DNA of 64,000 nucleotides from Staphylococcus phage OPT-SC01. Both the position numbers and the translations under genes were made by a program. The notes below the pieces were generated by a model. It worked only from the letters and a program-made list of their open reading frames with translations, ran no database searches and was not told where the DNA came from. Below are positions 57,942-58,758 of this stretch, in pieces. The stretch is taken from the sequence record PQ046924.1. One strand, given 5' to 3'. Position 1 is the first letter of the stretch, and each line of letters opens with the position of its first letter.

Positions 57942-58331
57942 ATGGCATCAGAAGCTAAACAAACCGTCCATACTGGTAATACCGTCCTACTTATGATTAA
58001 AGGTAAACCGGTAGGAAGAGCACAATCAGCATCAGGTACTCGTGAATACGGTACAACTGGTGTATACGAAATCGGTTCTATCATGCCTCAGGAACACGTA
58101 TACTTACGTTATGAAGGTACAATTACAGTAGAACGTTTACGTATGAAAAAAGAAAACTTTGCAGATTTAGGATATGCTTCACTTGGTGAAGAAATTCTTA
58201 AGAAAGATATCATTGATATCTTAGTAGTAGATAACTTAACAAAACAAGTTATTATTTCATATCATGGTTGTAGTGCTAATAACTACAATGAAACTTGGCA
58301 GACCAATGAAATAGTGACAGAGGAAATTGAG
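57942..58331 (+). CDS. tail tube protein, exon 1 (130 codons)
   Basis: MASEAKQTVHTGNTVLLMIKGKPVGRAQSASG... directly after the sheath gene. The reading frame runs 6 codons past ...VTEEIE(N) into a stop at the intron start. The exact 3-prime boundary is 58331 or 58334. Confidence 0.7.
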
Positions 58332-58719
58332 AATTTTACACTCTGCTCATAGAGTAATCTGTGAGTATTAAGGGTTAACTGCTATGAAACTTCTAAAGCT
58401 CAATCAACCACATAGGAATTGGAAACAATAAACTAGAAGGTTACGAAAGTAGAAAAAATGATTGAGATACTCTAAGGTTAAATCCTAAGGAGAAGTACAA
58501 TGGGTGTATAGCATCGAATACTCTAAGTGATATTAAATCATAAGAGGAACGTTCAACGACTATCTCATTATAAGATGAGAGTAAAGCTCCAAGCTATTGG
58601 GAGAAGAAAAATCCTTGCCCTACTAATTAGGGATAACAAATAGTCTAGTCACGTAGTGAAAGCTAGTGCATGTGAAATAACACAGGTTTACAAAGTAGCG
58701 TTTGTAAATAAATAAATCG
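58332..58719 (+). mobile_element. group I intron (ORF-less, about 388 nt) in the tail tube gene
   Basis: R element GUUCAACGACUAUC at 58553-58566 and S-like CAAAUAGUCUAGUC at 58629-58642 form P7. The 3-prime end ...AAAUCG carries an omega-G immediately before the in-frame micro-exon. Confidence 0.55.
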
Positions 58720-58758
58720 TTTTCGTACTTGACCGCATCAGATAAAGCCAGAACATAA
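58720..58758 (+). CDS. tail tube protein, exon 2 (micro-exon, 12 codons FSYLTASDKART plus stop)
   Basis: The short in-frame segment right after the omega-G matches the recalled C-terminus of the Twort-like tube protein, giving a total length of about 142 aa. Confidence 0.5.
   Translation, partial: FSYLTASDKART

Follow-up and report, generated by a model that had tools for sequence, protein, structure and literature searches.

The tail tube gene of the kayvirus Staphylococcus phage OPT-SC01, analysed here in a 64,000-nt stretch of sequence record PQ046924.1 (the window) and located on its + strand, very probably harbours a group I intron that is self-splicing and lacks an open reading frame (ORF). 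The intron occupies positions 58332-58719 and separates tube codons 130 and 131; we put the probability of this reading at roughly 0.88. That the OPT-SC01 copy splices itself, and exactly which bond is cleaved, we infer from the sequence. The insert is assigned to the group I introns because the spliced product is restored exactly, because the core covaries and because the short terminal exon is under purifying selection. The parts of the gene are as follows.

57942-58331, + strand: tail tube exon 1, codons 1-130, ending in ...VTEEIE, with 99.2% amino acid identity to residues 1-130 of the phage ISP protein
58332-58719, + strand: probable ORF-less group I intron of 388 nt, an insert relative to ISP with a covarying core, matched by the family hidden Markov model (HMM; nhmmer search) with E = 1e-103
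58719, + strand: omega-G, the terminal intron base as read from the sequence, and the sole 3' boundary with a terminal G that restores the reference protein
58720-58758, + strand: tail tube exon 2, 12 codons (FSYLTASDKART) and a stop codon, with 12 of 12 residues identical to ISP

The tube ORF in the program's translation (57942-58352) comprises 136 amino acids and ends in ...VTEEIENFTLCS and a stop codon. The tube protein of the intron-less phage ISP, which according to the annotation of the ISP record was found in the virion by electrospray ionization tandem mass spectrometry (ESI-MS/MS), has 142 amino acids and the C-terminus ...VTEEIEFSYLTASDKART, again followed by the stop codon. The alignments of about 230 kayvirus records to the window end at 58331, and the 12 terminal residues are recovered downstream, where a segment encoding FSYLTASDKART and a stop codon lies directly 3' of G58719. 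Joining G58331 to U58720 yields a tube protein of 142 amino acids, the C-terminus of which, ...EEIE/FSYLTASDKART, is identical to that of ISP (here and below, a slash within a sequence marks a splice junction). The enumeration of all in-frame joins within +/-8 nt of both boundaries revealed that the reference protein is regained only by 58331/58720 and by the sequence-equivalent join 58330/58719, and that a terminal intron G is obtained only with 58331/58720. The corrected coding sequence (CDS) is join(57942..58331, 58720..58758). Over the tube region the window has 99.2% identity to Staphylococcus virus vB_SurM-PSU2, and over the intron and the nuclease gene that follows it 99.4% identity to vB_Sau_P68.

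These results bear out nearly everything in the original prediction, which had been made from the letters of the window alone. It had proposed a group I intron with a 12-codon terminal exon, and it had read the end of the tube ORF correctly as VTEEIE followed by NFTLCS and a stop codon. It had also placed an in-frame segment behind a G about 388 nt downstream (the gap is exactly 388 nt), and it had put the end of the tube protein at about 142 amino acids, the length that the ISP protein has. The comparison with an intron-less kayvirus tube gene that it had recommended shows the expected break. Its statement that the insert has no ORF agrees with the ORF listing, in which no ORF longer than 38 amino acids lies within the 388 nt.

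If the OPT-SC01 copy is active, transcription would run through the intron, and the RNA would then fold into a group I core extending from P1 to P9.2. Guanosine-initiated splicing would ligate G58331 to U58720, and the spliced mRNA would read ...GAAAUUGAG/UUUUCGUAC and code for the normal tube protein of 142 amino acids. This protein would have the C-terminal sequence ...EEIEFSYLTASDK, including the peptide IVTEEIEFSYLTASDK.

The terminal micro-exon provides evidence of its own. Exon 2 of the window differs from that of ISP at 13 of 36 nt, from that of 184DA at 9 of 36 and from that of BE07 at 4 of 30, in each case without a single amino acid change; the last 36 nt of the intron beside it hold one difference between the window and 184DA. 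Because all 13 substitutions relative to ISP are synonymous, exon 2 is taken to be translated, and the pattern of substitutions indicates that the micro-exon is under purifying selection. The tails that would result from reading through into the intron, which were read by hand from the aligned DNA without a translation tool, vary (NFTLCS in the window, NLTLCS in 184DA and NNNSFSKVIC in BE07, each followed by a stop codon). One could suppose that the insert stays in the mRNA or is rarely removed, that the virion uses the protein of 136 amino acids ending in ...EEIENFTLCS, and that FSYLTASDKART is a relic, which would match the output of gene callers and three GenBank records and would agree with the absence of a canonical U-G wobble and the failure of the Rfam model RF00028, both described below. 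However, a relic would need to have acquired 13 substitutions in 36 positions with none of them changing an amino acid, the read-through tail within the intron diverges freely between clades, and the ribozyme core is upheld by compensatory changes; we give a retained insert next to no chance of being correct.

Relatives of the intron occur in 146 phage records. They reside in tube genes (PSU2, 184DA, BE07 and Enterococcus phage Riverwalk), in a portal gene (SAC), in tail lysin genes (Remus, and SEP1, in which the CDS is annotated as a two-piece join), in exonuclease genes (gp46-like in KSAP11 and DELF3, SbcD-like in Fi4S2) and in a siphovirus major tail gene (SscSF1). An alignment of 12 relatives from six host genes was used for structure analysis; it includes the close pairs window/184DA and KSAP11/DELF3, which inflate the counts of paired cells, but not the number of compensatory pairs across the six host-gene contexts. 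Unguided RNAalifold folding of the 12 sequences recovered P2, P3, P4, P5 with a large extension, P6/P6a, P7.1, P7.2, P8, P9 and P9.2, and compensatory changes were present in 58 of the 85 RNAalifold pairs. The invariant complementary strands GACUA/UAGUC were added manually as P7, which completes the P3/P7 pseudoknot, and P9.1 was left out of the pair scoring owing to a register shift in the alignment. With P7 included, 96.9% of the cells are paired, compared with 32-46% when the partners are slid; the corresponding numbers of double-change pairs are 58 and 5-19, and none of 500 shuffles reached the observed pairing values. The helices are located as follows.

58344-58367, + strand: P2 hairpin, with compensatory changes in 9 of 10 pairs
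58370-58376, + strand: 5' strand of P3, pairing with 58610-58616; 100% of cells paired, three pairs compensatory
58380-58513, + strand: P4 (58380-58384 with 58509-58513), enclosing P5 and its extension of about 110 nt
58515-58551, + strand: P6 and P6a, with compensatory pairs
58558-58562, + strand: 5' strand of P7, GACUA, within the R element, pairing with UAGUC at 58641-58645 in the S element and forming the pseudoknot with P3
58563-58603, + strand: P7.1 (58563-58580) and P7.2 (58587-58603); 100% of cells paired, with four and three compensatory pairs, respectively
58610-58645, + strand: 3' strand of P3 (58610-58616), P8 (58618-58632), J8/7 and 3' strand of P7 (58641-58645)
58650-58707, + strand: P9 (58650-58668), a P9.1-like hairpin and P9.2 (58688-58707) with the loop AGUAGCG

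P7.1 and P7.2 together with the extended P9 represent the pattern of subgroup IA. The R element GUUCAACGACUAUC (58551-58564) and the S element AAAUAGUCUAGUC (58638-58650), which the original prediction had already singled out as able to form P7, indeed contain the complementary strands of this helix; all 12 relatives have GUUCAACGACUA and AAAUAGUC without variation, in agreement with GGUUCAaAGACUA / AUAUAGUC of the RF00028 consensus. The insert has a bona fide group I core.

Two peripheral elements of the fold are conserved to an unusual degree. The P5 extension includes GAAA-capped hairpins, an A-rich bulge and the UAAGGUUAAAUCCUAAG hairpin (58473-58489). This 17-mer folds into a hairpin with an internal loop. 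Ten of the 12 aligned copies have it unchanged, and those of BE07 and SscSF1 each deviate by a single mismatch; exact occurrences are present in at least 120 IMG/VR viral contigs, and a tertiary docking element is one possibility. The P9.2 loop AGUAGCG (58695-58700) is likewise the same in 10 of the 12 relatives (AGUUGCG in Riverwalk, AGUGGUG in Fi4S2), and its stem covaries freely while the loop stays constant irrespective of the host gene, which suggests a conserved tertiary or long-range contact.

It should be noted that several observations weigh against the group I reading. P1 comprises only 3 bp (GAG/CUC) and P10 only 1-2 bp, too short for statistical weight on their own. Position -1, where a U would be usual, is a G that pairs with C58341; none of the plausible P1 helices includes a U-G wobble, the position of the U-G pair of the relatives being taken by an A opposite an A. 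P7, invariant in 12 of 12 relatives, yields no covariation evidence for or against its pairing. RF00028 gives no match at the locus at its gathering threshold of 50 bits, and a scan by E-value returned 15.2 bits with E = 0.3 and 115 model positions skipped. The minimum free energy fold of the single sequence was only mildly better than those of shuffled sequences (z = -3.3) and did not by itself reproduce the core.

The covariance-model match that the original prediction had asked for failed, and treating its absence as a refutation would wrongly reject the intron. RF00028 also misses the relatives in SAC and DELF3 (at E < 0.01), and the tube introns of Twort and phage 110 score 64-106 bits with it; the model is judged to be insensitive to the lineage of the tube intron, and the low score is not counted as evidence against the intron. 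The consequences for annotation are already visible. The three annotated GenBank records that were checked (PSU2, Stab23 and St14.GH) all contain the truncated 411-nt tube CDS only, as had been anticipated for a micro-exon that gene callers miss, so that at least three therapeutic-type Staphylococcus phage genomes record a truncated major tail tube protein. Since the standard Rfam model is silent on the intron, automated pipelines will repeat this error.

The origin of the ribozyme is indicated by its relatives at other loci. In KSAP11, DELF3 and Fi4S2, the ribozyme core is followed by an ORF whose Pfam domains, OrfB_IS605 and Cas12f1-like TNB, identify it as TnpB, and Rfam matches to RAGATH-18 were present in the DELF3 and SAC copies, the two loci that were scanned. 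RAGATH-18 is the guide-RNA scaffold of IS607 TnpB (PMC11061315). Because of the TnpB ORF and RAGATH-18, copies of the KSAP11/DELF3/Fi4S2 type are classified from their sequences as group B IStrons resident in staphylococcal phage genomes. The core of the window intron is 82-86% identical to the KSAP11, DELF3 and SAC copies, which bear TnpB and/or RAGATH-18, and the window ribozyme also has partial matches to the Clostridium botulinum phages c-st and D-1873, the hosts of CbISt3/4. By these sequence relationships, the window intron is a relative, devoid of an insertion sequence (IS), within the IS607 group B IStron ribozyme lineage, and not itself an IStron. A phage structural-gene intron is now placed within this lineage. 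In the records inspected and the paper library searched, we found no description of this lineage in kayvirus and sepunavirus tube genes at codon 130, of its link to IStrons, or of a clade in which the U-G pair is wholly absent.

In Silviavirus and related phages, group B (IS607-type) IStrons made up of a ribozyme, TnpB (annotated as 'transposase') and, at the two loci scanned for it, the RAGATH-18 guide scaffold lie within essential genes (L009 2470-4403, L006 2470-4400, L012 1471-3237 and L003 1979-2614 in the numbering of our locus set). The genes concerned encode a gp46-like exonuclease, an SbcD-like exonuclease and the portal protein, and the deposited annotation is split or truncated. The SAC copy has kept RAGATH-18 and lost TnpB.

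The unusual 5' splice site of the window intron can be understood within this lineage. Two features define it.

58329-58331, + strand: putative P1 exon strand GAG, with G58331 as the last exon base (-1), pairing with C58341-U58342-C58343
58340-58344, + strand: internal guide sequence ACUCU, in which A58340 sits where most relatives have G

The register of P1 in the window is the same as at the solved junctions of KSAP11, Riverwalk and SAC, and A58340 is matched by U58720, with which exon 2 opens, resulting in a P10-like pairing. At all four sites the non-U base at -1 was deduced from intron-less alleles. In the KSAP11 exonuclease gene it is a G, the intron-less allele UAU GGU CAA GGA GAC (YGQGD) showing that exon 1 ends in UAUGGG. 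In the Riverwalk tube gene, whose site lies at the homologous codon (...SESTQ/FTYLTSA...), it is likewise a G and the register is unchanged, and in the window itself the junction GAG/...UCG/UUU restores the ISP protein. In the SAC portal gene it is a C, and here the junction UGGC/...UUACG/AAGUCC (L003 1976-1988 and 2610-2620) was predicted by the rule given below and has neither a gap nor a mismatch across it in comparison with the intron-less Silviavirus allele. A rule of two parts fits four of four junctions. The base at -1 makes a Watson-Crick pair with guide position 2 (G58331-C58341 in the window), and the base that opens the 3' exon is complementary to guide position 1, as is ordinary in P10 geometry. 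At guide position 1, the window and BE07 have a U-A pair, Riverwalk has U-G, KSAP11 has C-G and SAC has A-U.

Several candidates for a P1 with a U-G pair at the splice site were tried, namely exon AAAUU with intron AAUUU, exon CAGAG with CUCUG, the guide with AGAGU of the L2 loop, and exon AUUGAG with the P5a-internal CUCAAU; all were rejected, as none is conserved between the window and BE07. Reading ...GGGU/...GCCC of the relatives as a canonical U-G pair was rejected because the intron-less alleles place the U in the intron, and for the SAC portal gene the junction CAAAU/U... was discarded because the rule-predicted UGGC/AAGUCC matches the intron-less allele instead.

In group B IStrons the U at the junction is not exonic and the U-G pair is displaced by one bp from the splice site (Tourasse et al. 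2014, PMC4227781); BcISt1 was shown experimentally to splice after G (PMC4227781), and an IS607 IStron, CboIStron, undergoes scarless self-splicing at TGGG targets, in cells as well as in vitro (Zedaveinyte et al. 2023, 10.1101/2023.11.20.567912). These findings also bear on an alternative junction in the window, splicing after U58334 (GAGAAU/) to G58719, which would offer a U at -1 and a terminal G, would be in frame, and would use a GAGAAU that the window, 184DA and BE07 have in common. The product would be a tube protein of 143 amino acids with an extra Asn (...EEIENFSYLT...), and among the enumerated in-frame junctions none with a U at -1 gives back the reference protein. For GAGAAU there is no pairing with a guide sequence that would put U58334 in a helix, the length of the tube C-terminus is conserved in ISP, phage 110, StAP1 and Twort, and the four solved junctions of the lineage all have a non-U base at the position equivalent to G58331, in line with the published splicing of BcISt1 after G. 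Splicing after U58334 is thus regarded as very unlikely.

Within the lineage, two sites deserve mention in their own right. Published group B IStrons splice after G at targets ending in GG, and splicing of the SAC portal intron after C would be a further variant. In DELF3, the 5' exon beside the IStron (L006 2455-2475) reads ...AUGUAUGAA/UGAUUGCCCC and, in contrast to that of KSAP11 (...UAUGGG), cannot pair with the guide GCCCC; this points either to impaired splicing in DELF3 or to conversion of the exon after insertion.

The clade formed by the window, PSU2, P68, Stab23, 184DA, BE07 and others may represent a functional group I ribozyme without any U-G wobble, in which the pair at the cleavage site is G-C, and which belongs to a lineage that moves between a TnpB-IStron and a nuclease-assisted homing lifestyle; we consider this proposal tentative, its chances being a little below even. 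If it is true, a ribozyme lineage picks its 5' splice site by a rule other than the nearly universal one. The four solved junctions constitute independent comparative evidence for splicing after a non-U base in the IStron ribozyme lineage, and a variant without the displaced U-G pair would be a convenient substrate for testing 5' splice-site choice.

The mobility of the intron has to be considered together with the region downstream of the tube gene, which contains the following features.

58781-58805, + strand: terminator-like hairpin behind the tube gene, with an annotated terminator at the corresponding position of ISP
58812-58840, + strand: promoter-like site TTGACA-17-TATCAT, a consensus match only (11 of 12 positions)
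58874-60172, + strand: free-standing nuclease gene, 432 amino acids, absent from ISP and the intron-less kayviruses

The ORF of 432 amino acids belongs to PHROG 7140, 'intron encoded nuclease' (E = 2e-124), and its product is 52% identical to Twort ORF018, the gene of which follows the Twort tube gene. Its AlphaFold model (mean predicted local distance difference test score, pLDDT, 86.8) has structural matches to AF1548, TnsA, the R2 restriction-like domain, XisH and Vsr (probability 0.98, template modelling (TM) score 0.49), and also to the DNA-binding part of I-HmuI. The residues D158, E171 and H177 are invariant among six homologs. The protein is predicted from the model to combine a PD-(D/E)xK fold with an I-HmuI-like DNA-binding module; as a point on the other side, the fold matches are individually weak (best E = 9.5e-4, TM up to 0.49), and Pfam, NCBIfam and PDB sequence searches did not identify the catalytic domain, the fold being derived from the predicted structure only.

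The nuclease gene, which lies outside the intron and has putative expression signals of its own, is colinear with the intron in 15 of 15 intron-bearing records (nine kayvirus-like, six sepunavirus-like). The density of mismatches to ISP rises from about 1.5% (57942-58207) to 10.5% (58208-58331) and to 33% in exon 2, and homology to ISP resumes only near window position 60321. Because the divergence rises towards the intron and the homology returns only there, a single cassette of intron, exon 2, terminator and nuclease gene seems to have been acquired horizontally. Tube introns and an adjacent nuclease gene have been reported for phage 812 and others (Botka et al. 2019, PMC6445280), and derivatives of phage 812 have lost the tube introns and the adjacent nuclease gene together (PMC6445280). 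The co-occurrence of intron and nuclease gene, the divergence gradient and the joint losses in phage 812 all fit nuclease-driven homing. The nuclease would cut intron-less tube alleles near the insertion site, its presumed target, and the repair would copy the intron, exon 2 and the nuclease gene together, as in collaborative homing. Judged from these patterns, homing with co-conversion has a better than even chance of being what mobilises the tube intron.

The tube genes of other phages are informative in this respect. The second intron (I2) of Twort is inserted 4 nt upstream of the window site, and the I2 introns of phage 110 and StAP1 1 nt downstream of it (GAGU/), so that three different introns occur within 5 nt at tube codons 129-131 in different phages, each beside a related nuclease gene. 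The StAP1 nuclease has 76-77% amino acid identity to that of the window, and in StAP1 this orthologous nuclease adjoins an unrelated canonical intron, with the phage 110 I2 being of the same kind. The family HMM has no match to the Twort or phage 110 tube introns; in StAP1 it matches another tube intron weakly (E = 5e-36), and of the site-equivalent I2 only the last ~130 nt (E = 9e-6). From these comparisons, the window intron is unrelated to the classic Twort orf142 introns and to the phage 110 I2, and its insertion point differs by 1-4 nt or more. The presence of unrelated introns 1 nt apart beside orthologous nucleases suggests that the site is defined by the target of the nuclease and not by a transposase.

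This bears on the question whether the insert could be a decayed IS607-type IStron that arrived by TnpA/TnpB transposition, with the nuclease being unrelated to its mobility. Its closest relatives at other loci are genuine IStrons with TnpB and RAGATH-18, the SAC copy with RAGATH-18 and without TnpB demonstrates that such decay occurs, and ORF-less IStron derivatives are documented (PMC4227781). However, RAGATH-18 and any IS remnant are missing from the window copy, in which P9.2 is followed by no more than 12 nt; its target has AG and not GG at the end, and its 3' end is UCG and not CGG. Furthermore, the intron is strictly linked to the nuclease gene, the flanking divergence resembles a co-conversion gradient, and an unrelated canonical intron lies 1 nt off beside an orthologous nuclease in StAP1, with an intron of the same kind in phage 110. 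An origin by decay of an IStron is thus considered improbable, and homing driven by the nuclease remains the favoured explanation.

Further introns accompany the tube-gene family. The 184DA tube gene has three introns in its last 33 codons (L015 1798-2889; exons 1471-1797, 2103-2138, 2471-2500 and 2890-2925), and the first two have only the 5' half, P2 to P6, in common with the family model, which suggests a modular or chimeric ancestry of the ribozymes. Elsewhere in the window, the endolysin gene (31881-34099, - strand) consists of three exons (about 34099-33957, 33556-33066 and 32732-31881) that are separated by two ORF-less introns (about 33956-33557 and 33065-32733, - strand). The first is a match to RF00028 (64 bits, 33642-34015), and the second shows a weak relationship to the family of the tube intron (nhmmer E = 9e-10, 32765-32939); many kayviruses have instead a single endolysin-gene intron with an HNH endonuclease. 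The holin-endolysin block has a tRNA gene (34913-34986, - strand; Rfam RF00005, 62.6 bits) just upstream of it.

The literature already describes introns in the tube gene beside a nuclease gene, namely in Twort orf142 and in the phages 812, A3R, 676Z, Fi200W and P4W. The 812-type introns share the genus, the gene and the architecture of one or more tube introns and a downstream nuclease gene with the window. They differ in that homology of 812 and A3R to the window ends near 58288, which puts their first intron about 14 codons upstream, and in that their nuclease is about 35% identical to that of the window, in the C-terminal part only; an intron of the window type at codon 130 is not described in PMC6445280. 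The three introns I1-I3 of Twort orf142, the tail tube gene (Landthaler & Shub 1999, as cited in a passage of PMC11878797), and the introns of phage 110 and StAP1 have in common with the window intron the host gene, the hotspot at its 3' end, the lack of an ORF and a homologous nuclease gene behind the tube gene. In contrast to the window intron, they have a canonical U-G 5' site (GCAU/, GAGU/), score 64-106 bits with RF00028, and have no large P5 extension. The site at codons 129-131 lends itself well to studies of how introns and free-standing nucleases interact.

In phage T4 (mobE and nrdB) and in a cyanophage (F-CphI and psbA), ORF-less introns reportedly travel with free-standing nucleases. 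The window shares with these systems the ORF-less intron beside a nuclease gene, the strict co-inheritance of the two and a flanking divergence that rises to the insertion site; their nucleases are of the HNH or Endo VII type, whereas that of the window is predicted to have a PD-(D/E)xK, Vsr-like fold. The term collaborative homing is used in the papers on mobE/nrdB (PMC2790892) and F-CphI/psbA (PMC6083498).

With the group B IStrons (BcISt1, CbISt1-4 and CboIStron), the window intron shares the IA-type core with P7.1 and P7.2, the extended P9, the non-U 5' site and the terminal G. Unlike them, the window copy has no TnpA, no TnpB and no match to the RAGATH-18 guide RNA, with 12 nt between P9.2 and the 3' splice site, and in place of the displaced U-G pair it has an A opposite an A. 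By the published criteria (PMC4227781), its target ...UUGAG and its 3' end ...AUCG also deviate from the GG target and the CGG end of group B IStrons, which counts against placing it in their lineage. Finally, in contrast to the group B IStrons, it is linked to a protein-only nuclease gene that lies outside the intron.

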